Below, piece by piece: positions 3,543-26,900 of a DNA stretch of 64,000 nucleotides. The stretch's first letter is position 1. Each line of letters starts with the position of its first letter. The notes under the pieces were generated by a model, which ran no database searches, was not told the DNA's origin, and saw only the letters and a program-made list of their open reading frames with translations. Source of the DNA: Naegleria gruberi (lineage: Eukaryota); NCBI GenBank assembly GCA_000004985.1, contig GG738902.1. The stretch is one strand, 5' to 3'. The position numbers were made by a program, and so were the translations under genes.

Positions 3543-4613
3543 ATGCAAACACATAAAGAAGAACAAGTAGCATCATCGGAATTGGATGAAATTTCATCAT
3601 CATTGGAAAATGTCTATGAAAAAGCAGCCCAATTAATTTATAATTCCAAATATTTATTAATTACATGTGGAGCAGGATTTAGTAAAGATTCAGGACTTGC
3701 AGTCTATAAAGATATTGCTTCTAATCCAATTTATCAAGAAAAGAATTTAACTTATCATGATTTAGCAAGACCTGTTTCTACATTTGAAACTGAACAAGAA
3801 TTATTAGATTATTATGGATTTTGGGTTAATTGTGCACAAAGTTATTTAAATACTCCTTCTCATTCTGGATATCAAATTTTAAAAGATTGGAAACAATTAT
3901 TATATTCTAAAAAGGAAATTCAAAAGGAATTTAATGAAAAACAAATTGAAATACTTTCAGCAAGTCAATGGTGGAAGGAAAATTGTAAAATTGCATCAAA
4001 TATGTTTATTTATTCATCAAATGTTGATAATCATTTTAGTAGATATTTTGAAAAGGAAGAAATTTATAATATTCATGGACATGCTTTAAATTGGCAATGT
4101 GGAAATCATTGTAATGAAGATTGTGTTTGGAATTTTACAAAACAATTACAAAATATTATAATTAATCAAGAAACATTACAAATTGATAATGAAAAATTGA
4201 AAGAATTAAAATGTGAAAAATGTCAACATGCATCAATGCCAAATGTATTAATGTTTGGTGATTTGGGTCAATATATTAGAAATACAGAAGAAGAAGATCG
4301 TTATATTGCATGGGAATGTTCAGTTGAAACTTTTTCAAAAGAATCTTCAACTAAATTTCCATTTATTATATTAGAATTAGGATGTGGATTAACAGTTCCA
4401 TCTGTTAGACGTGAAAATGAATGTGTTTTATTAGATTGTGATGAATCCTATCTCATTAGAGTTAATTTAGGTCAAGAAGAATTAGATACAATTCATAACG
4501 TTGACTTGATTCCAATGAAAAATGATAGAATTTTAAATATTAAGAATGGTTGTCAAGATGCTCTTCATCGTATTCATCAACATTTATTGAAAATTATTGA
4601 AAATAACAAGTAA
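3543..4613 (+). CDS. Sir2-family (sirtuin-like) NAD-dependent deacylase, divergent
   Basis: 356-aa ORF. Motifs are a GAGFSKDSGL NAD-binding glycine motif, an NVD motif, an HG catalytic His followed by CGNHC...C, and a second CxxC (CEKCQ) followed by VLMFGD, matching the sirtuin zinc ribbon and Rossmann layout. The canonical GAGIS..GIPxFR Arg is not obvious. Confidence 0.6.
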   Translation: MQTHKEEQVASSELDEISSSLENVYEKAAQLIYNSKYLLITCGAGFSKDSGLAVYKDIASNPIYQEKNLTYHDLARPVSTFETEQELLDYYGFWVNCAQSYLNTPSHSGYQILKDWKQLLYSKKEIQKEFNEKQIEILSASQWWKENCKIASNMFIYSSNVDNHFSRYFEKEEIYNIHGHALNWQCGNHCNEDCVWNFTKQLQNIIINQETLQIDNEKLKELKCEKCQHASMPNVLMFGDLGQYIRNTEEEDRYIAWECSVETFSKESSTKFPFIILELGCGLTVPSVRRENECVLLDCDESYLIRVNLGQEELDTIHNVDLIPMKNDRILNIKNGCQDALHRIHQHLLKIIENNK

Positions 4614-8978: not shown

Positions 8979-9731
8979 TTAATTCTTGTGTTGAATTTCA
9001 TCACAGAGTTCAATGATTCTCTTGGATTGGACCATTTCGGCAATCTTCTTGATTTCTTCAACATTTTCCTTGTTGATATTCTTCATGATCATACTTTCAC
9101 ATTCAACTTGCAAATCTTCCAACAAGAACTTGTGAGCAGCGATCCAAACACCGACAACATCATCAACTTCAACTTCGAATTCACGAGTGTAAATATACTT
9201 AAGGATGGCCAACATTTGCTTTTCAGTGGCATCTTCAATATCAATTCTCATGGTCTTCTTTTGTTCATTTTCAACATCACCCAAGAGCATACCGTGGAAG
9301 TATTTACAGGCGCTAGTCAAGATAACAGCGTGGCACTTAACTTCAACAGTCTTACCATCTTCTTCGCTACAGACCAAAGTCAAGTCAGACAAATCCCATT
9401 TACCAGTTCTCAAGTTTTCGAAAGCCCACTTCATGTTCTTCCACCAAGAGGATTCTGGAACAACAACATTCTTGCTCTTATCAAGATAAGTTTCAGCAAT
9501 AACATCTAATCTGTCCAAACTCAAATACTTGGCAGCTTCTTGGGTTTCCTTGATCAAATCCTTTTCAGTATCCTTGTCCCAACTGACTTTATCAGTGTAG
9601 AGGTATTCCAAAACTTCCTTGAAAGCCTTGTGAGTAACTCTCTTATCCAAGGTGATTTGCATCTTGCCGTCAATAGTTGAGAGGGTTGTACCGGCAGTAT
9701 TGATTGATCTCCAATCTTCTTCAGTTGACAT
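8979..9731 (-). CDS. BTB/POZ-domain protein
   Basis: 250-aa ORF with a BTB core (DLTLVCSEEDGKTVEVKCHAVILTSACKYFHGML...). Strong C/G-ending codon bias suggests high expression. Confidence 0.6.
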   Translation of the reverse strand: MSTEEDWRSINTAGTTLSTIDGKMQITLDKRVTHKAFKEVLEYLYTDKVSWDKDTEKDLIKETQEAAKYLSLDRLDVIAETYLDKSKNVVVPESSWWKNMKWAFENLRTGKWDLSDLTLVCSEEDGKTVEVKCHAVILTSACKYFHGMLLGDVENEQKKTMRIDIEDATEKQMLAILKYIYTREFEVEVDDVVGVWIAAHKFLLEDLQVECESMIMKNINKENVEEIKKIAEMVQSKRIIELCDEIQHKN

Positions 9732-13688: not shown

Positions 13689-14960
13689 TTAGTTTGTACT
13701 TGTAAAGAACTCATCCTCAGATTCATCTGATTGTGTAATAATTTGACTAATCTCTAAGGCATGAAGATCTCTTGATTGAGTCACTAATGTCTTATACGAC
13801 ATGAATACTACCATGAATAGAGTTACAATAATTATTATACATAAAATCAAACTAAAAACAAAATGTAAATCTATCATTAAAATAAAATCATATAATCCAT
13901 GGAAAATTAGTGGTTGATAAATGACATAACAGAAGAAAGATAAATTAATCCAGATTTTTCTCAATGTTGAAGTTCCATTTGCCTGTCTATCTTGATATCT
14001 ACTCTCAATAAATATTGGAACCTCAGTTAAATGTTGAGTTTCCAAACGTATCTTGTATTGAGCAATTCTTAATCCTACAAGACATCCGCTCAATGTATGA
14101 AGTGGAAGAGCAAGTAAAATTCTTCCAATAACTGTCATTGCTCCAAATTGTAAAATTACCATTTGTTGAGAAGCTCCAGAAGTGAGAATATAAATCTTTA
14201 AACAAACTACTAGAATAAATCCAATATTTTCAACTGTAGAAAGTCCAAGAGCCGCCAAAGCACTATAAACCATTGGTGGAAGTGGATGACAATGAGAATG
14301 ATAAAATAACTTCTCTGTTTGATTTTCAAGTTTAAAACATGATGAGAAGAAACTTCCTCCACTTGTTAATTTCAAAGCAAGTAAAGCTTTTGCAACTTCT
14401 TCAACAAGAGATGAAACAAAGAATGATTGTAATACACCAAATAATAATTTCCACACAAAACTCAAATTTTCTAATTGTGTTTCAACTGATTGTATCATTG
14501 ATGATGAATCCACTGTAATAATTTTCAATCCGTGCATAATTGAAATTAATAGTATAGATGCAATAATTTCAAATAAAAAGACAGGTATTACTGATAAAAT
14601 ACCACTCCACAATACATGAAAGGATAATTCTAAATCAATTTTGTTTCTAAACATGAAATAAATAATTAAAAATATTATAATACAAGGAAGAACTCCAATA
14701 AGAAGAAGCAGAGAAATAGCTGGACTAAAAAATAGAGGAATTAAAAGAAGGGAGAGAAGAGGAATAATAGTAAAATAAAGACAAGGTCCTAATTTTTGAT
14801 TCACTAAATCCTGATGAGGTGCCAATGTTGATGGTTCGGAAATGTGATCACCACCAAAACTACCTAATTCTAAATCTTCAGAGTGATCATCTGTATGACT
14901 ATCAGTGTTAGGCATTTTTTTGATGAATTTAATAATAAGTAATGTATATGATGTCATCAT
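13689..14960 (-). CDS. Polytopic membrane protein, CPBP/PrsW/Abi-like intramembrane metalloprotease family (tentative)
   Basis: 423-aa ORF with about 8 predicted TM helices. It has an EEVAK (EExxK) motif inside a TM helix, a downstream ENIGF, and an HGLYD (HxxxD/N) motif, as in CAAX-protease/PrsW families. Confidence 0.4.
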   Translation of the reverse strand: MMTSYTLLIIKFIKKMPNTDSHTDDHSEDLELGSFGGDHISEPSTLAPHQDLVNQKLGPCLYFTIIPLLSLLLIPLFFSPAISLLLLIGVLPCIIIFLIIYFMFRNKIDLELSFHVLWSGILSVIPVFLFEIIASILLISIMHGLKIITVDSSSMIQSVETQLENLSFVWKLLFGVLQSFFVSSLVEEVAKALLALKLTSGGSFFSSCFKLENQTEKLFYHSHCHPLPPMVYSALAALGLSTVENIGFILVVCLKIYILTSGASQQMVILQFGAMTVIGRILLALPLHTLSGCLVGLRIAQYKIRLETQHLTEVPIFIESRYQDRQANGTSTLRKIWINLSFFCYVIYQPLIFHGLYDFILMIDLHFVFSLILCIIIIVTLFMVVFMSYKTLVTQSRDLHALEISQIITQSDESEDEFFTSTN

Positions 14961-15039
14961 GGATAATATGAGTTGATATCGTAACTAAAAAGAATTGCAA
15001 CTGTTTTGATTTTAATATTTTATATAGGATTTATATGAT

Positions 15040-15665
15040 TTATTCTTGAGCAACAGCAGCTTGAGCCTTAGCGACAGCAGTCTTCTTTTCAGTCAAAATG
15101 ATTTCCATGTGGGTTGGGTTAGCCATGAATGGGTTAATTCTACCGTGAGCTCTGAAAGTTCTTCTTCTCATCTTTGGAGCTCTGTTGGCTTGGGAGTGGG
15201 AAATGACCAAATCTCTGACATTCAAACCCTTAACTCTGGCGTTGTTTTCAGCATTCTTCAAAAGCTTCAAAACAGCGAAGATTGACTTGGTTGGGTATCT
15301 GCTGTTAGCAACACCGAATTCCTTGGAGTGAGCGTGTCTACCTGGACCACCGTTGTAAATCTTGAATGGGATAGCTTCAGTGTGTCTCAAGACGTTGTGC
15401 AAGTACTTCTTGGCTCTTCTCAAAGACAAACCCTTGATGGCATTGATAGTTTCACAAGTATTCTTGAAGTGAACTCTAACACCTTCAACCTTAGCCTTGG
15501 CGTGCTTGGAGGTTTCTGGGTCAACAGAGTATCTTTGTCTATTGGCTCTAGTCCTAAATATTTGAAGATAATCACAACATTAATAATAACAAGACAACAC
15601 AAATACACAAATCGTTAAGCAAAGAAGAACAATATTAAAAAAAGCAGTGGTGATGTTACATACAT
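15040..15665 (-). CDS. RPL17: 60S ribosomal protein L17 (uL22); start codon split by a 5' intron
   Basis: Exon 2 (15553..15040) encodes TRANRQRYSVDPE...VRVHFKNT...YNGG...KMRRRTFRAHGRINPF...EIILTEK, which aligns with eukaryotic L17. Exon 2 begins in phase 2. The only upstream ATG (15665..15663) is immediately followed by GTATGT. The model is therefore exon 1 ending ...AAAAAT, a roughly 110-nt intron (15554..15663), and exon 2 starting with G to complete ATG. Confidence 0.75.
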
Positions 15666-16035
15666 TTTTGAGTATTTTTTTTCAACAAAATTTTTAAAAC
15701 TTGGCTGGTTGTCTTTGTTGTTGGTATTTTACAATAAAAATTTTCTGTTGGGCATTTTATGAAGGCAAGAAGCCAAAGAGGAAGGAAAAAAAGCAATGAT
15801 AGAGAATGTTAATACAAACATCAACAATAAACCCACCTGTTAATCAAACATTTTGCTTCAATGTATACATCAATCGGATAGTGCTGAATATGCAGCATTG
15901 ATGTTTTTCATCATAACTAGGAAATACTTGCAAAGCCTATTTCTGCAAGTCTTCGACTCTAGTAGGAACAAAACAATTTATCATATGAACAGAGGATGAT
16001 GATATTATTTACATTATTGGTTTTATTTACATCAA

Positions 16036-18063
16036 TTAACAATCAACAATATTCAAACTCTTATCTTCAATAAGAATTTCTTCCTCATCATCTTCCTCTT
16101 CTTCCTCTTCTGTTGTGGAACTGAACAACATTTGCTTTTCAGCCAATCCTTTGTAAATACCATTAGAAATTTCCATGAGCTCATTGTGTGTTCCCTTCTC
16201 TCTCAATTCACCTTTAGCCAATACACAAATTTGATTGCAATCCTTAACAGTTGAAAGTCTGTGAGCAATGCAAATTGAGGTACGTCCTTTCATTAATTTG
16301 TCTAGAGCAGCTTGAACCAATGCTTCTGATTCAGTGTCCAATGCAGAGGTTGCTTCATCCAAGAGTAAAATCTTTGGATCTTGTAATAAGGCACGAGCAA
16401 TGGCAATTCTTTGTTTTTGACCACCTGACAATGAAACACCCTTCTCACCCAACAAGGTATTATATCCTTCTGGCAAATCTGATATGAAACTGTGGCAATT
16501 GGCTGCCTTAGCTGCCTCAACAACTTTTTCCATTGTTGCATTTTCTTCACCGATAGCATAGGCAATATTTCCATAGATTGTTGTTGCAAAAAGTACAGGT
16601 TCTTGAGTTACGATACCTAAACAAGATTTGTGCAACCACATTGGATCGAGCTCAGCAACATCTACATCATCAATGTAAACTTTTCCTTTGGCAGGGTCAT
16701 AAAATCTTTCCAATAAACCAACAATGGTTGATTTACCAGATCCGGATGGACCAACTAATGCAACAGCTTGACCAGATGAAATATCCAATGAGAAATTCTT
16801 CAAAACGGTAACATTTGGACGGGAAGGATAAATAAAATCAACATTTTCAAATCTGACATGACCCTTAATGGTTTCAATTTTTTTACCTCCTTGAATTGGA
16901 ATGGCTCCCTTTCTCTTTAAAACTTTCAAAACAACTCTTTGAGAAACCATGGCTTTAGTATAATCTGGGAAGAATGCAAAAACTTGAATCAAGCCCATTG
17001 TTGAAAACAAAGACAATCCAATAACCTTCATCAAGCTTCCGATGTTCAATTCAGATGAAACTACTAAACCACCACCATACCAGAAGCAAAGTGCAACAGT
17101 TCCCCAAAGAACACCAATCATGACACCAAAGGTGGAGCCTTGTGCTATGGCCTTTCCCACACCTGCCAAGAACTTCTTTTTCAAATCACGTCCATATTTT
17201 TCTCTTTCTTTTTCTTCACCTGCCATTCCTCTTACAGTTCTCATTGAACTCAAAACTTCTGTAAACATGGCTGCACTGTGGTCATTGGATTTGTTAATCA
17301 TTGTAGTTAATTTACGAATAATACCTCCCAACACAAAAACACCAAATATCATGATTGGAGTGGTTGAAATCATTACAAGTGTGAGTTTCCAAGATGAAGA
17401 CATGGACAATGAGAAACCAATTGCAAATTGAGCAATACTTGTAACAAAGGTTGAAATTCTGGTTGTGTAAATTTCCTGAACTTTTGTACAATCCTCATAG
17501 AGAGTATTAGTAACAGCACCAACTTTCTTAACATCAAAATAGCCCATTTCTTGATCTGTCAATGCATCAAAATAAGCAGTTCTCAATGCAATACCAATTC
17601 TTTCACTTGCATAATTCAAGAAAAAGTTGGATAAAAGAGAGGCAACAGCTGCACCAGCTGCAATTCCAGCAAACTCACTGGCATAAACACTCACTTGGGA
17701 TTTCTTTTCAGCTGTTGTCATGGTTGTTGAGGCAAAAACTGTAATGACATCACCCATTATAAATTGAAACATGAGAGGAATGATACCACTACCTGCACTT
17801 CCAATCATACCAATTAAAATTAAAAGCCAATTCCAACCAATAATCTTATAAATTGTGAATGCATCTTTGAAGGATGGTTTAGGTTCTCTAAGGTCAACCA
17901 TTTCAATCTCAGAGGATGATATCTGCTCACCAGCCTCCTTATTATTATGTTTCTTGAAAGGATTTCTGCTTTGTCTTCTTGTATTTTCAGTCTTTTCCAT
18001 CTTTACATCCCCAACCTGAATCGTTGTTTGTGAAGATGGTTTCTTAATCTCTTGTTCGCTCAT
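16036..18063 (-). CDS. ABCB-type half-transporter (TMD-NBD)
   Basis: 675-aa single ORF with six TM helices followed by Walker A GPSGSGKST, signature LSGGQKQRIAIARAL, Walker B ILLLDEATSALD and an H-loop IAHRL. The C-terminus is an acidic tail. Confidence 0.9.
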   Translation of the reverse strand: MSEQEIKKPSSQTTIQVGDVKMEKTENTRRQSRNPFKKHNNKEAGEQISSSEIEMVDLREPKPSFKDAFTIYKIIGWNWLLILIGMIGSAGSGIIPLMFQFIMGDVITVFASTTMTTAEKKSQVSVYASEFAGIAAGAAVASLLSNFFLNYASERIGIALRTAYFDALTDQEMGYFDVKKVGAVTNTLYEDCTKVQEIYTTRISTFVTSIAQFAIGFSLSMSSSWKLTLVMISTTPIMIFGVFVLGGIIRKLTTMINKSNDHSAAMFTEVLSSMRTVRGMAGEEKEREKYGRDLKKKFLAGVGKAIAQGSTFGVMIGVLWGTVALCFWYGGGLVVSSELNIGSLMKVIGLSLFSTMGLIQVFAFFPDYTKAMVSQRVVLKVLKRKGAIPIQGGKKIETIKGHVRFENVDFIYPSRPNVTVLKNFSLDISSGQAVALVGPSGSGKSTIVGLLERFYDPAKGKVYIDDVDVAELDPMWLHKSCLGIVTQEPVLFATTIYGNIAYAIGEENATMEKVVEAAKAANCHSFISDLPEGYNTLLGEKGVSLSGGQKQRIAIARALLQDPKILLLDEATSALDTESEALVQAALDKLMKGRTSICIAHRLSTVKDCNQICVLAKGELREKGTHNELMEISNGIYKGLAEKQMLFSSTTEEEEEEDDEEEILIEDKSLNIVDC
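16285..16510. repeat. Arm 1 of a ~225-bp near-identical inverted repeat between the two ABC paralogs (partner at 20150..20375)
   Basis: Reverse-complementing 20150..20375 and aligning it by eye against 16285..16510 shows only a handful of mismatches over ~225 nt. Identical 78-aa antisense ORFs in the ORF track (16251..16487 plus strand, 20176..20412 minus strand) reflect the same identity. Confidence 0.8.
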
Positions 18064-18528
18064 TTTTTTGTATGTTGTCTATTGAGAGAGTTTGAATGAA
18101 TTTCCAAGCAATATTTATTCGATACAGCAGCACTAAGAAATCATCGCTTTACTAGAGCGCTAACAGCGCAAAACCTCAATGGATAGAGTTGCGCAGAGAT
18201 GGACATTTTGATGTGGATAACGATATTAGAAAACGTATTGAGATCTAATTCCATCAACCGGTGTAGAAAAGGAGCAACGACAGCGAACTATTTAATTTAA
18301 TGACTTTTTCGTGATCGATATGCTCTTATAGCGCAATGGAATATGTTGCGTACTAAGAAGTGGTGATGGTTTTATTAACATACAACAACCATCGACATGT
18401 TTAATAATAACAACTCCTCTCAGCACTGCTCGGCATTATTATTTAAGAAGAACCAAGAGAGACAAATACAAATATTCAAAAAAAACAACTCAACACTAAT
18501 CACAATTTTTTCATATACAATTCAGAAA
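18064..18528. promoter_or_regulatory. Shared divergent (bidirectional) promoter region between the two ABC half-transporter genes
   Basis: A roughly 330-465 bp intergenic region lies between the two start codons of the head-to-head genes. It is unusually GC-rich for this window and carries near-palindromes (AGCGCTAACAGCGC; TAGCGCAATGGAATATGTTGCGTA). Confidence 0.4.
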
Positions 18529-20549
18529 ATGACTGAAACACATGCATTGGATTATCAGATAGAGATTAAGGATGACAAGCCTACCGATCACAAATTAGAT
18601 ATAGATGCACTTACACCAAGAGATGAGAAGGCAACTAATCCAGCTGCATTATCTAGAAACCCATTCAAGAGAAGAAGACAGAAGAGAAAATTGAATGCAT
18701 TGGAGAAGATGAAAGACGAAATTCCAGATCCAAGAGAACCAAAAATTGGATTCAAAGATCACTTGATTCTACTGAAATTAATTGGTTTCAAGAATTGGGT
18801 ATTGATCTTTTTTGCAACTGTTGGTGCTGGAGGTGCAGGTGTTATTGGTTTATGCTTTCAATTTATTTTGGGAGATTTGATTAATAGTTTGGCAACCATC
18901 ATGTCAGATTCAAATGCATTGAGAGATGAAGTTAATTCAATTGCTGGAAAATTTGCTATTGTTGCTCTGGGTGCTGTGATTGCAAACTTTATGAATCAAT
19001 TCTTTAATACTTTGGCTTCAGAGACAATCAGTAGAACATTGAGACAGAAATATTTTGAATCATTGACAGCTCAAGAAATGGCATTCTTCGATATTAAGAA
19101 AGTTGGTCAACTGGCCTGCATTTCCAGTGATGATGTTGCCATTGTTCAAGAAATTTACACTTCCAAATGGTCAACCTTCTTCCAACAAGTAGTTCAAGTA
19201 GTGGTTGGTCTCATTCTCGCATTCATCAGCTCTTGGAAGATGTCTCTCGTCATCATTTCAACAAGTCCAATTATCTTTGTTTTGATTTGTGGTGTTTCAC
19301 AAGGTATCAAGAAGTTGTCAAAGAAAACATCAGAAGCAAATGAACATGCATCTGCAATTGCAACTGAAATTGTTTCATCAATTAAGACCGTAAGATCAAT
19401 GGGTGGAGAGCCAAAGGAAAGAATTAGATATAGAAATGATTTGAAGAAAGTTCACAAGTATGGTTTATTCAAGTCCATTCTTCAGGGATTCGTTTTCTTC
19501 GTTTTGAGTTTCACCATTTGGGGGACTGTTGCATTGGCCTTTTGGGTAAGTTTTATTATTTATTGCATTTCTAATTATCTTTCGAATAGTTTGGAGGTAA
19601 TTTAACCGTAGACGGTGAGATTAGTATCGGAAGCATGTTTAGAGTCTTTGGTTTATCATTGATGGCTGTCATGGCTTTATCAAATGCTGGTACCTTCTTT
19701 ACAGAATATGCCAAAGCCATTCAAAGTCAAACTTCGTTATTGAAGGTAATTAGAAGAGTTCCTGAAATTCCATTCAAGGGTGGTAAAACAATTGAAAATC
19801 TCAAAGGTGATATCTCTATTAAGAATATTGATTTTATCTATCCAGCCAGACCAAACACCACGGTATTGAAGAGCTTTAGTTTGGAAATCAAAACTGGTCA
19901 AGCTGTTGCATTTGTTGGTCCATCTGGATCTGGTAAATCAACCATTGTTGGATTAATTGAAAGATTTTACAATCCAGTTAAGGGTAACATTTCGATTGAT
20001 GGTGTTGATATTTCAGAATTGGACCCAATGTGGCTTCACCAAGTTGTTGGTATTGTAAACCAAGAACCAACCCTTTTTGCTTGCTCAATCAGAGATAACA
20101 TTACGTATGCTTGTAGAAGACCTGTCTCTCAAGAAGAAGTTGAAGAAGCTGCCAAAGCTGCCAATTGCCATAGTTTCATTTCAGATTTGCCAGAAGGATA
20201 TACCACCTTGTTGGGTGAGAAGGGTGTTTCATTGTCAGGCGGTCAAAAACAAAGAATTGCCATTGCTCGTGCCTTATTACAAGATCCAAAGATTTTACTC
20301 TTGGATGAAGCAACCTCTGCATTGGACACTGAATCAGAAACATTGGTTCAAGCTGCTCTCGACAAATTAATGAAGGGAAGAACAACCATTTGTATCGCTC
20401 ACAGACTTTCAACTGTTAAAAACTCAGACATGCTGTGTGTTCTTTCTAAGGGAGTTCTCGTTGAGCAAGGAAAACATGAAGAATTGATTCAAATTCCAGA
20501 TGGTGTATATAAGAAGTTAGCCGAGAAGCAAATGATGTTTGCTCACTAA
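18529..20549 (+). CDS. ABCB-type half-transporter (TMD-NBD), paralog of the divergent upstream gene
   Basis: Exons are 18529..19545 (or from the ATG at 18397) and 19590..20549. The 44-nt intron 19546..19589 (GTAAGT...CTAAT...AATAG) restores the frame (..ALAFW/FGGNLTVDGEIS..). The NBD has Walker A GPSGSGKST, LSGGQKQRIAIARAL and LLLDEATSALD. Confidence 0.8.
20150..20375. repeat. Arm 2 of the inverted repeat (partner at 16285..16510) within the NBD signature/Walker B region
   Basis: See arm 1. The flanking TMD-coding sequence of the two genes is far more diverged. Confidence 0.8.
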
Positions 20550-20640
20550 TTATATTCCATGTAAATAAATCTAAATGTAAATATAAGCACATTAGAGAAA
20601 TATCTATTGTTGTCGAAGATTATTTCACATAATAAAAAAA

Positions 20641-20961
20641 ATGGAAAATTTACATGAAGATGTTTGCTATGGTCCACCAGAGTATTTTGATGATGATATT
20701 ATTCAAAAGGAAGTTCAAGAGGAAATAATGGACTCCTCCACAGAAATTACAATTAGTAATGATAAGAAATTATTCTTGATTACAACAAGAATTGAATGGT
20801 TGATGGCAATGGAACGTAAAGATGACCAACAGATATCTTATTATGAGGAAAAATTCAATGAAGTTGCCAATATTTGGTTTAGTCTTCCGATTGTAGATGA
20901 AGTAAAGAATGAAACAAGTATTGAAAAATTGGAACAACTCAAACAATCCATAGTGAAATAA
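20641..20961 (+). CDS. Small acidic hypothetical protein (106 aa)
   Basis: An ATG-initiated ORF directly downstream of the ABC gene. No family recognised. It could be spurious. Confidence 0.25.
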   Translation: MENLHEDVCYGPPEYFDDDIIQKEVQEEIMDSSTEITISNDKKLFLITTRIEWLMAMERKDDQQISYYEEKFNEVANIWFSLPIVDEVKNETSIEKLEQLKQSIVK

Positions 20962-21444
20962 ACATGTTTGAAACTGTTTCCATTTTCAATCACACAACTA
21001 GTTCACATTAATATTGTCTCTAATATTCTCCATTTTTACTTGAGAATAGTTCATCACCATCTCTCTCTCAATTTATTTACACAATTTCTTTTCAACTGCT
21101 TTTAATTAGAGTAGAAACTTCCACAGTTGTTAGGCAATCAAAGCCTAAAAGTACATTCTTTTCCATCATCGCAATGTTTGATTTTAACAAGTATCACCTC
21201 ATAACTCTATCAAATTTTTCATAGGATGGAAAGTGGCAACGTCAAACACTTGTCAATCACTCAAACCTTTGGTAACGTTCTGGACCGAACAAAAAAATAG
21301 AAAACAAATAAAACAGAGGCTCATCAACCGCTCTAATCCTCTGCTGCTCTAATCAATAACAACTGTGTCATCATATATTAAATATATTATTATTATACAA
21401 TATACTATTATTATTAAAGAACAACAATTAACTAGATTAAAAAA

Positions 21445-23950: not shown

Positions 23951-26900
23951 ATGCCACCAAGAACAAGTAAAAAAAAGGCATCTTCATCAAAAGAAGCACC
24001 ACAAACACCAAAGAGAAAGTCAAGAAATGATGAAGAGGCTACTTTCACACCAATGGGTACACCAAGTCAATCACTCTCACAATCATTATTTAGTTTATCA
24101 ACAAGTCAAGCTCAATTGTCTCAATATCTTGATGAAGGAGAAGAAGTTTCTGATGTTTTATCTGGAGCTTATATTTCGGAAGGTATGACCGAAGGAGATT
24201 TATCTGAAAGAATGAAGGTTAGTATAGTTTAATTATGTGACTAATTAACACGTAATAGAAAATATCTGATATCTTGAAAGGAATGGGACAGTTAGCAACA
24301 CCTGATGATGCTCCTTGGGATGAGCTTTTCATATCTAACATAATTGAAAAGAAAATCATTTCAAATAAGACTGAAGAAGTTAGAGTTTATGCAGCTTGTT
24401 CAATTGTTGATATTTTGAGAGTTACTGCTCCTGATTGTCCATTTGAAGATGAAGAATTACCAAGAGTATTTAAATTTATTATCGAACAAATTGAAGCTCT
24501 CAGTAGAGGTGGTGTACTCTTTTCTAAGAGATTCTATTTATTGGAAAGACTTTCAACAGTTAAAATATTTATTATGCTTGTAAACATTGATGAAGGAGAA
24601 GGTTTAATTATTCCACTCTTTCAATCATTGTTTAGAATTGTAACTGATAGTGAATCTACCCAACCACAAAAAGTCATATCATACATTTGTGATATTATGA
24701 TAACTCTTATTGAATCAATTGAAACTGTTGATTCTAAGCTTATTGAAGTTCTTATTCAACCTTTATTGGAAAATAGATCTAAAATTCCATCAGAAGATGA
24801 TGAAGATGAAGACAAGGATGAAGATGATGATGAAGATTCACATTTCTCAGCCAAATACATTTCCAAGAATGTTTTAGATAAGACTCAAGAACATTTATCA
24901 AATCAACTCAACGACTACCTCAATGACATTCTTAAAGAGCTTGATGTAACAAAAGACAAAACAAAATCTACATACAAGAAGAAACGTGCTAGAGTATTCA
25001 GCTTGATTTATGAAATCAACTTGATTTCTTCAAGACTTTTATTGACTGTTATTCCAAACCTTTGTATTCAATTGAAGGATGAGGAAGTTCAAGTTAGATC
25101 AGCTGTAATTCAATTATTGGGAAATATGTTCAAAGCAAAGGAATCAGAACTATTTAAGGAATATCCAAACATCTTTGAAACAGATTTCCTTTCTAGATTT
25201 ACTGATAAGGATAACCGTGTTAGAATTTATATGAGTAAATTTGCGAGTGGAATGATTAAAAATCACCCATCCAGTAACAAGGTACTAAATGAAAGACTGG
25301 AGGAAAGAATTATGGACCCTGATGAAAAAGTAAGAAGAAATGTTGTTGAAACTATTATCAATATTGCCATGGAGAGTCCTGCTCTTGTATCTGATAGTTT
25401 AATGCAAAAACTTAAGGAAAGAACAAGAGACAAAAAGGCTGTTCTTAGACTTCATGCTTTGGAGTTATGTGCCAAGCTCTATAACCACCATGCTACTGAA
25501 GCATTAAAAATTGGAGATAGTTGGGAAAATACTACAAGTGAAAAGCTTGCATGGATTCCAAATACTATTATCAAGTTGTATGCTGAACAACATGAACAGG
25601 TTGTTTCGAATAGATTAATGGTAGAAAAACTTATTGACCAAGAATTATTGGCACAAGACTCTTCAAGAACCAAGACCCTCTTGGATTTGTACACAAAACT
25701 TGATCAATCATCAAAGCATGTCTTATCAGCAATAATTTCACAAAAGAAGTCTTTACAACACTTTGTCAACACTCTTATTCATTTGGAAGAAGATGATGAT
25801 TCAAGATTACCACTTATTTTGAATAACCTTTCCTCTTCTCTTCCTGATGAATCAGTTGGTAAAAGAGTTTGGAAAGATGTCTTTAATCGTAGAAACAAAC
25901 AAAACGATAATGCTATCACAACCTTAAAGTCTTGCTTGAATACCAATATCACTTTTGATGCTGTAACTAAACTTAAGAAGAAAGGTGAAGAGAAGATTCT
26001 TGGAGAAAAGAAGGAAGAAAAGGACTACATGAAGACTGTAATCCAAAAACTTGCCATGACCATTTTTACAAAGGAACAAGCTAAGGAATTAGTTAAACTT
26101 GCTCACTCATTCTCTGATACTAAACAAATTGAAATGACAAAATCATCAATTCGTCTCTTCAATATAATAGTACAAGCTTACCCAGCAATGGGAAAGGATT
26201 CCATTCCTTCATTGATTGAATTATTCGAGAAGGAGCAAGATTATGATCTTAATATTCTAGTCCTTAAGGCATTATCTCAATGCGTTGTAGAGTTGGAAAA
26301 AACCAACTTCTCTCTTGCTAATGAACTTGAGACAAAAGTTGTCGATTTCTGTACTATGGGCAAACCAAAGGAAGTTAAGAGAGCTGCAGAAGTAATTACC
26401 AAGGCTTTCACACATCCAAAGTCTATCTTTTCACAAATTATCAAAGAGGCCAAGTCTAAGATGAACTATGGTGAAGAACTTTTAACATCTATTAGTGCTT
26501 TCAGACAAGTTGCAATTCATGATATTGAATTATTCAGACGTGATGAAGAAGAAATTGTCGAATTTATTTTGAATGAAGTTATTTTGGTTGATAGAGAAGA
26601 AATGAGCTCCTCTTGGGAAACTTTATCTGTAGATACACAAACCAAGGTTCAAGGATTCAAGTTTTTGGTTGACTATTGCATTGCTTGTACTAAGGAAGGC
26701 ATTACTGAAGAGTCAGAAGCAACTAGTTCAAAACTTGTAAACATTCTCTTCAGTATTCTCAAGAATAAGGGTTCTATTTCTCGTGTCATCCAAGAAATCA
26801 ATGATGAAATGGAAACCAGTGAAGAACAAGAAGAAGATGATAAGAAGGAGAGTAAGAAGAGAGAAATTGATAGGGCAGCTCTTAGACTGATAGCTGCCAA

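Follow-up and report, generated by a model that had tools for sequence, protein, structure and literature searches.

Two divergent ABCB genes and their shared segment

The window analysed here is a 64,000-nucleotide stretch of contig GG738902.1 from the Naegleria gruberi assembly GCA_000004985.1, in which two ABCB half-transporter genes, here called A and B, lie head-to-head and are divergently transcribed from either side of a 465-bp spacer (18064-18528). Gene A (16036..18063, minus strand) is intronless and encodes 675 amino acids, and its open reading frame matched XP_002671870.1 (‘abc transporter AbcB1’ of N. gruberi NEG-M, P0001) at 100%. Pfam placed an ABC_membrane domain (PF00664) at residues 82-346 and an ABC_tran domain (PF00005) at residues 421-573, and an acidic C-terminal tail follows the nucleotide-binding domain (NBD). 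Gene B lies on the plus strand and consists of exon 1 (18529..19545), encoding the N-terminus and transmembrane domain (TMD; ABC_membrane, residues 94-359), a 44-nt intron read from the sequence (19546..19589, GTAAGT...TAG) and exon 2 (19590..20549), encoding the end of the TMD, the NBD (ABC_tran, residues 432-582) and a short tail. The spliced product of 658 amino acids is an exact match to XP_002671791.1 / NAEGRDRAFT_73046.

Both domains passed the Pfam cut-offs in both proteins (ABC_membrane and ABC_tran at 181.8 and 108.6 bits in A, and 179.7 and 109 bits in B), and the Walker A (GPSGSGKST), Q-loop, signature (LSGGQ), Walker B (ILLLDEA), D-loop (SALD) and H-loop (AHRL) motifs of the NBD were read in both translations. 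The best matches of A and B outside Heterolobosea were ABCB1, ABCB4, ABCB5 and ABCB11-type proteins at 35-47% identity. N. gruberi has at least three other close paralogues (P0002, P0049 and P0076), and no other ABC gene was found within the 64-kb window.

A repeat search identified inverted arms in the two genes at 16244-16530 and 20133-20419 (287 nt, 92% identity), in a register where the A coordinate equals 36663 minus the B coordinate. A near-identical inverted repeat had been claimed in the initial annotation of this DNA and the repeat is real, with 214 of 226 positions (94.7%) identical between B 20150-20375 and A 16288-16513; the A interval originally given, 16285-16510, was displaced by a trivial 3 nt of register. 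Codon alignment, with edges set by the flanking mismatches, delimited a tract of 200 nt at 16304..16503 in gene A (minus strand) and 20160..20359 in gene B (plus strand) that encodes ANCHSFISDLPEGYNTLLGEKGVSLSGGQKQRIAIARALLQDPKILLLDEATSALDTESEALVQAA and differs between the arms at six positions (B 20171, 20180, 20203, 20204, 20240 and 20340). Identity over B 20160-20357 was 192/198 (97.0%), and a run of 99 nt at B 20241..20339 (plus strand; A 16324-16422) is free of mismatches and is the youngest core of the tract. The two 200-nt arms are separated by 3,656 nt, both lie inside coding sequences at 190-270 nt from the stop codons, and in each gene the sequence on either side of the tract is unique.

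Motifs inside the tract are the helical subdomain/X-loop (TLLGEKG), the signature (LSGGQ), the Walker B (ILLLDEA) and the D-loop (SALD), named by applying established knowledge of ABC NBDs to the alignment. The span proposed earlier thus held for the signature and Walker B but not for the Q-loop (VTQEP / VNQEP, at about B 20061), which lies outside the tract, as does the H-loop. The 5' edge is sharp, as the five identical residues that adjoin the tract (EAAKA) are encoded by different codons in A and B at all five positions. Within the tract, the derived peptide HSFISD was found in A and B only among the 19 aligned family members.

Synonymous sites, gene trees and interlocus exchange

Codons for amino acids shared by A and B were identical in 61 of 64 cases inside the tract and in 156 of 280 cases outside it (Fisher P = 6e-11). 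Codon usage would predict 30.4 of 64 and 142.5 of 280, respectively, so that the count outside the tract is close to expectation. The longest run of unchanged synonymous codons was 38, a length reached in none of 20,000 permutations. Nei-Gojobori estimates of synonymous divergence (dS) between the two genes were 0.09 in the tract, 1.37 upstream and 1.14 in the upstream part of the NBD, and the tail was saturated (proportion of synonymous differences 0.81). The divergence of A and B outside the shared segment that had been asserted in the initial annotation is therefore confirmed, with about 49% protein identity and dS from 1.1 to saturated.

The possibility that no exchange took place, and that the segment is alike through extreme purifying selection together with codon bias or through a function at the nucleotide level, draws on the fact that no other part of the protein is as well conserved across the family, with 76-91% identity in this segment to A or B in all 17 other aligned members. 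The 22 codons directly 3' of the tract (the H-loop region) are equally conserved in protein (non-synonymous divergence, dN, 0.06), yet their dS is 1.2, which demonstrates that protein conservation alone does not keep the DNA alike. As controls we used the Naegleria lovaniensis gene P0003 (locus L001), the Naegleria fowleri gene P0010 (L002) and three metagenomic/Logan genes, P0009, P0008 and P0013 (L003-L005). Among the 20 other pairs that can be formed from A, B and these five genes, 46-71% of shared residues in the tract segment had the same codon, which is about the value of the flanks, and A-B was the sole pair with a tract share far above its flank. At the DNA level, unconverted pairs were 73-81% identical in the tract segment versus 69-76% in the flanks. 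Because the segment is synonymously saturated in the other pairs, purifying selection and codon bias do not account for its identity in A and B, where the observed codon sharing is also about double that predicted from codon usage. The only threshold Rfam match in the window was a 5S rRNA gene. The tract tree described below joins A with B against their own clades. We consider an origin without exchange to be very improbable.

Neighbour-joining trees with 300 bootstraps were calculated for 19 family members from three segments, upstream, tract and tail. The upstream tree (473 columns) grouped A with P0002, P0003 and P0008 in 300/300 replicates and B with P0010, P0013 and P0009 in 289/300, and never paired A with B (0/300). 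The tract tree (68 columns) recovered A with B in 284/300 replicates and placed neither gene with its own clade (0/300 for each). In the tail tree (63 columns) A returned to its own clade in 212/300 replicates and A+B was again absent (0/300); the exact B clade was recovered in 85/300, with B placed in the B clade in the point tree. Additionally, a 44-nt intron of differing sequence lies at the same codon boundary (after ...AFW) in B and in N. fowleri P0010 (L002, about 9051-9094). It is missing from A, and the N. lovaniensis A-clade gene P0003 likewise has no intron at that site, as its tblastx alignment is continuous. No intron interrupts the reading frames of P0009 and P0013 in the B clade, perhaps because these sequences derive from transcripts, perhaps through intron loss.

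The trees and the intron that B shares with P0010 and A lacks indicate that A and B are old separate lineages. Since both flanks in the reference stay with their own gene lineage, the shared segment was homogenised recently and without crossover. The tail trees also identify the reference orientation as the parental one, with no inversion fixed in the reference.

These observations also bear on a recent inverted duplication of A and B after which everything except the shared segment diverged quickly. The two genes are indeed adjacent and inverted, and their branches are longer than those of their clade-mates. Against such an origin, A and B have different partners among the genes of N. lovaniensis, N. 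fowleri and the metagenomic relatives, at the bootstrap values above, and the intron common to B and P0010 is lacking in A. Uniformly high identity across the genes, which would mean a simple recent duplication, was looked for and was not found, with half of the protein residues differing and synonymous sites diverged to saturation outside the tract. A recent duplication is accordingly a reading to which we attach hardly any credence. The clearly longer branches of A and B suggest that the head-to-head pair evolved faster outside the shared segment. P0002, a closer N. gruberi paralogue of A, appears to be the genuine orthologue of N. lovaniensis P0003. No head-to-head ABC partner was found at loci L001-L005, and tblastx comparison of L001 and L002 with the window matched the ABC genes only. 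As these loci lack such a partner, they offer no orthologous pair for a GENECONV-type comparison.

A further alternative is that a third paralogue elsewhere in the N. gruberi genome converted both arms, or that the shared segment is an artefact of the reference assembly. Possible donors exist in P0002, P0049 and P0076, but these are only 85-90% identical to A or B in the tract protein and are without HSFISD, and there is no third copy of the tract in the 64-kb window. An artefact is opposed by an independent Illumina contig (L006, described in the next section) that carries the same tract with its residual mismatches, and by the unique flanks in both genes. A search with the 95-residue tract peptide returned short fragments only, at 67-79% identity, and as P0001 itself was not listed the search is uninformative about a third donor. 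A scan of JGI metagenomes with the gene A TMD gave 37 pattern matches and no relatives, and a scan of the same resource with an exact 27-nt piece of the tract gave no match. On the evidence of the paralogue proteins, the window, L006 and the flanks, a third donor or an artefact is judged to be very unlikely.

The reading that we favour, and hold with high confidence, is that A and B are ancient ABCB paralogues between which a patch of about 200 bp of the NBD was copied by non-crossover interlocus gene conversion. Synonymous identity, the orthologue control, the contrast between tract and flank trees and the independent contig L006 all bear out the recent non-reciprocal exchange that had been proposed for this pair. 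Homology-directed repair would have copied about 200 bp of the NBD of one gene into the other without exchange of the flanks. The segment that is most conserved in protein would retain the most DNA similarity and would thus be the easiest target for strand invasion, and a homogenised patch could in turn be a better substrate for further exchange. The proximity of 3.7 kb and the inverted orientation would favour intrachromosomal repair. Naegleria genomes encode RAD51, DMC1, MSH2/6 and PMS1/2, a toolkit for recombination and mismatch repair (PMC9928731).

Four of the six mismatches fall in the first 45 nt of the tract and two in the other 155 nt (about 1.3%), and this uneven spread suggests nested or repeated events. 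Conversion probably happened more than once. The mismatch level of the 155-nt part resembles the divergence of about 1% between the two strains compared below. A weaker second inverted similarity was observed around Walker A (16627-16902 / 19767-20042; 276 nt, 74%), where dS was 0.71 versus 1.1-1.4 elsewhere, a difference that is not significant alone; this could be an older conversion remnant or mere P-loop codon bias.

Several points weigh against gene conversion as stated here. Codon sharing of the tract, which would bear on donor and direction, was 0.60-0.67 (P0010, P0013) and 0.54-0.56 (P0009) with the B clade and slightly lower, 0.50-0.57, with the A clade, a difference that is not significant. 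A third-copy donor among P0002, P0049 and P0076 is excluded at the protein level only. Conversion at an identity of only about 75-80% is expected to be rare, so that the first event needs luck or an older, continuous exchange. It is also important to note that the tract is known from assembled sequence, in the reference and in contig L006.

A second strain and a candidate inversion

Contig L006 (6557 bp) belongs to the metagenome assembly ERZ929261 (run ERR1078381) in the European Nucleotide Archive (ENA), and was reached through two ENA open reading frames in the 90% cluster of gene B. Its identity to the window was 99.3% in the 5' part of A, 98.65% in the 5' part of B, 99.25% in the A tail and 98.96% downstream of A. 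The spacer (L006 1684-2168) was the most variable part, with 90% identity and three indels of 10, 2 and 28 nt. Judged by these identities, L006 represents a different N. gruberi strain. Because L006 has the tract, and at 20171, 20180 and 20203/4 shows the residual A-type and B-type differences seen in the reference, the tract predates the split of the two strains.

From window position 16384 to the B tract, L006 is colinear with the reference. Beyond the B tract it runs into the A tail, the A stop codon, the A 3' flank and a neighbouring gene of 423 amino acids, to window position 13736. The bases are B-type through 20204 and A-type from 20240, which defines a switch interval at B 20205..20239 (plus strand; A 16424-16458) that widens to 20205-20339 if GGC at 20240 is private to NEG-M. 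An inversion through crossover in the tract would produce precisely this join, and the interval is a candidate for the crossover point or, alternatively, for an assembly mis-join.

The 3.7-kb segment may therefore be invertible by crossover between the arms, with the second strain carrying the inverted isomer, a reading that adds to gene conversion and does not replace it. The order in L006 (the 5' part of A, the spacer, the 5' part of B and the tract, then the tail and stop of A and the neighbouring gene, window 13736-16243) agrees with it, as does the switch from B-type to A-type bases, and the chimeric open reading frame P0297, in which B exon 2 continues into the A tail, is intact. L006 ends inside the tract on the A side and the one contig of the assembly found beyond B, L007, begins 19 nt past the B stop, so that in an inverted arrangement the two contig breaks would fall within about 290 nt of one another. 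Inverted paralogues in yeast, moreover, show recurrent conversion together with inversion (PMC9731477).

Other features of the assembly argue for a mis-join. The two L006 copies are identical from 20205 to the end of the contig (20279), and 20340 is the next position known to be diagnostic. The copies therefore probably share 135 nt or more, which exceeds the assembler k of 127 and puts the join beyond the resolution of a de Bruijn graph. Pruning of tips or of low-depth paths in a reference-like genome could give an identical contig. The reciprocal product (A 5' part with B tail) was not found in ERZ929261, where L007, reached through the neighbouring gene, begins past B, and GGT in the A-side copy at the equivalent of 20240 misfits a simple reciprocal crossover at 20205-20239. 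We therefore regard the inverted isomer as a real possibility to which somewhat less than even weight is given. The left end of L006 (B-equivalent 20279) was also considered as a junction limit of assembly at k = 77 or k = 127, but the predicted ends, 20280 and 20330, did not fit. No literature was found on PRJEB11402.

The inversion of the promoter segment that had been suggested earlier does not follow from this arrangement, as the arms lie inside the coding sequences near their 3' ends. With the arms at that distance from the stop codons, an inversion would leave about 85% of each gene, counted from its start, attached to its own promoter and would swap only the last 70-90 codons, approximately, and the 3' flanks. 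A more speculative proposal, which we entertain as possible but rather doubtful, is that the arms are a natural recombination switch in which recurrent conversion keeps about 150-200 bp identical within a co-regulated pair of half-transporter genes, an occasional crossover flips the 3.7-kb promoter-proximal block, and strains are polymorphic for its orientation. If this is true, each flip swaps the C-terminal tails, including the ExxxLI-type motif of A, and the 3' untranslated regions, and could thereby transfer a signal for sorting or stability from one transporter to the other, whose membrane domain differs. Such a polymorphism would be direct evidence of homologous recombination in wild Naegleria populations.

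The C-terminus of gene A (16036-16125, minus strand) consists of an acidic run followed by EEEILI, and gene B has no such tail. In the second strain the tail ends in EEENLI (L006, about 4180-4267). Both endings fit the [DE]xxxL[LI] pattern of acidic-dileucine sorting signals, and the motif is a putative signal of this kind. Ahead of the membrane domain, many of the aligned Naegleria half-transporters have a conserved basic motif, S(R/K)NPFK(K/R), which in the pair lies at about 17950-17970 in gene A and 18650-18675 in gene B.

The spacer (18064..18528) is the shared intergenic region of the pair and is presumed to be a bidirectional promoter. It had been described as unusually GC-rich, and this was not sustained, as its GC content is 0.342 (window 0.325, two coding sequences 0.37) and is only mildly raised even at 18150-18350 (0.393), a value equalled or exceeded by 6.7% of 200-nt windows. 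Near-palindromic motifs had also been described for the spacer; short ones such as GCGCTAACAGCGC are present, but the region folds no better than its shuffles (z = -1.2). Neither a tRNA nor a significant DNA fold was found in the spacer, and Rfam gave no match to it even at E = 1. A direct motif, GC[GT]CT[AT]A[CT]AGCGCAA(...)CAATGGA..A..GTTGCG, occurs there in two copies (18157-18193 and 18322-18350), is conserved in L006 and has a first half that within the window is unique to these copies; any statistics are circular, since the two copies themselves supplied the search pattern. This motif is possibly a shared promoter element.

Among the remaining features, the 5S rRNA gene lies at 41272-41390 (minus strand; RF00001, 105 bits) and is the sole match at the Rfam gathering threshold in the 64-kb window, in which no tRNA genes were found. 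The region 20568-21216 of the window, with a gene of 106 amino acids at 20641-20961 (plus strand), is covered at 95.6% identity by L007 of ERZ929261, and an open reading frame of 93 amino acids at 23951-24232 (plus strand) is encoded exactly on a 1598-bp ENA contig (P0301). ENA metagenome assemblies thus hold N. gruberi-like DNA that is usable for the study of strain variation.

Comparison with known systems and significance

Adjacent inverted paralogues are well known to undergo interlocus conversion, for example in the hsp70-7/hsp70-8 pair and the hsp16 inverted modules of Caenorhabditis elegans (PMC3966223). As in these hsp pairs, A and B are linked paralogues of opposite orientation with a tract of a hundred to a few hundred bp in part of the coding sequence and flanks that are not homogenised. 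The hsp pairs are young or similar throughout, in contrast to A and B, which are ancient, with 49% protein identity, saturated dS and an island of only 200 bp. The ‘flip/flop’ region of Saccharomyces chromosome XIV (PMC9731477), where paralogous inverted repeats are homogenised, the segment between them is re-inverted and its orientation is polymorphic, is a model for an inversion in L006. The yeast arms are about 4 kb long and near-identical and flank 24 kb with 15 genes, whereas the arms of A and B are about 0.2 kb and lie inside genes. An inversion here, unlike that of yeast, would create chimeric coding sequences, and the second orientation is only a candidate. The human Y-chromosome palindromes (PMC8600007) similarly have inverted arms kept alike by intrachromosomal conversion, but these are of kb to Mb size and homogenised over whole arms, in contrast to a short patch in diverged genes.

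Within the ABC transporters, conversion has been proposed for fungal PDR-type paralogues from whole-protein similarity in comparison to gene neighbourhood, with no mapped tract (PMC2763886), and GENECONV tests of avian ABCG2 paralogues found no conversion (PMC7362505). All of these cases concern ABC paralogues, and that of A and B includes a mapped tract. Our literature search returned no report of gene conversion for Naegleria ABC genes.

In vertebrates, ABCG5 and ABCG8 are head-to-head half-transporter genes that share a short bidirectional promoter, are co-expressed and form an obligate heterodimer. A and B resemble them as two half-size ABC genes diverging from a short shared intergenic region, but ABCG5 and ABCG8 belong to another subfamily than these ABCB genes, and that pair is not known to have a conversion tract. 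Heterodimerisation of A and B, as an analogy with this pair might suggest, would be pure conjecture.

In summary, the patch shared by A and B adds a clean case to those known for this process, unusual in how old the paralogues are and in the inversion possibly linked to it, and it does not change the understanding of how gene conversion works. If the inverted isomer is real, it would constitute a natural domain swap between two transporters and a structural polymorphism, testable by polymerase chain reaction, with which recombination among N. gruberi strains could be followed. For the gene family, NBD-based trees of Naegleria ABCB genes would wrongly pair A with B unless the 200-bp patch is masked. 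For the organism, whose recombination and sexual cycle have been inferred mainly from gene content, the finding shows ectopic homologous repair at work on short islands of similarity that remain between Naegleria paralogues of great age.

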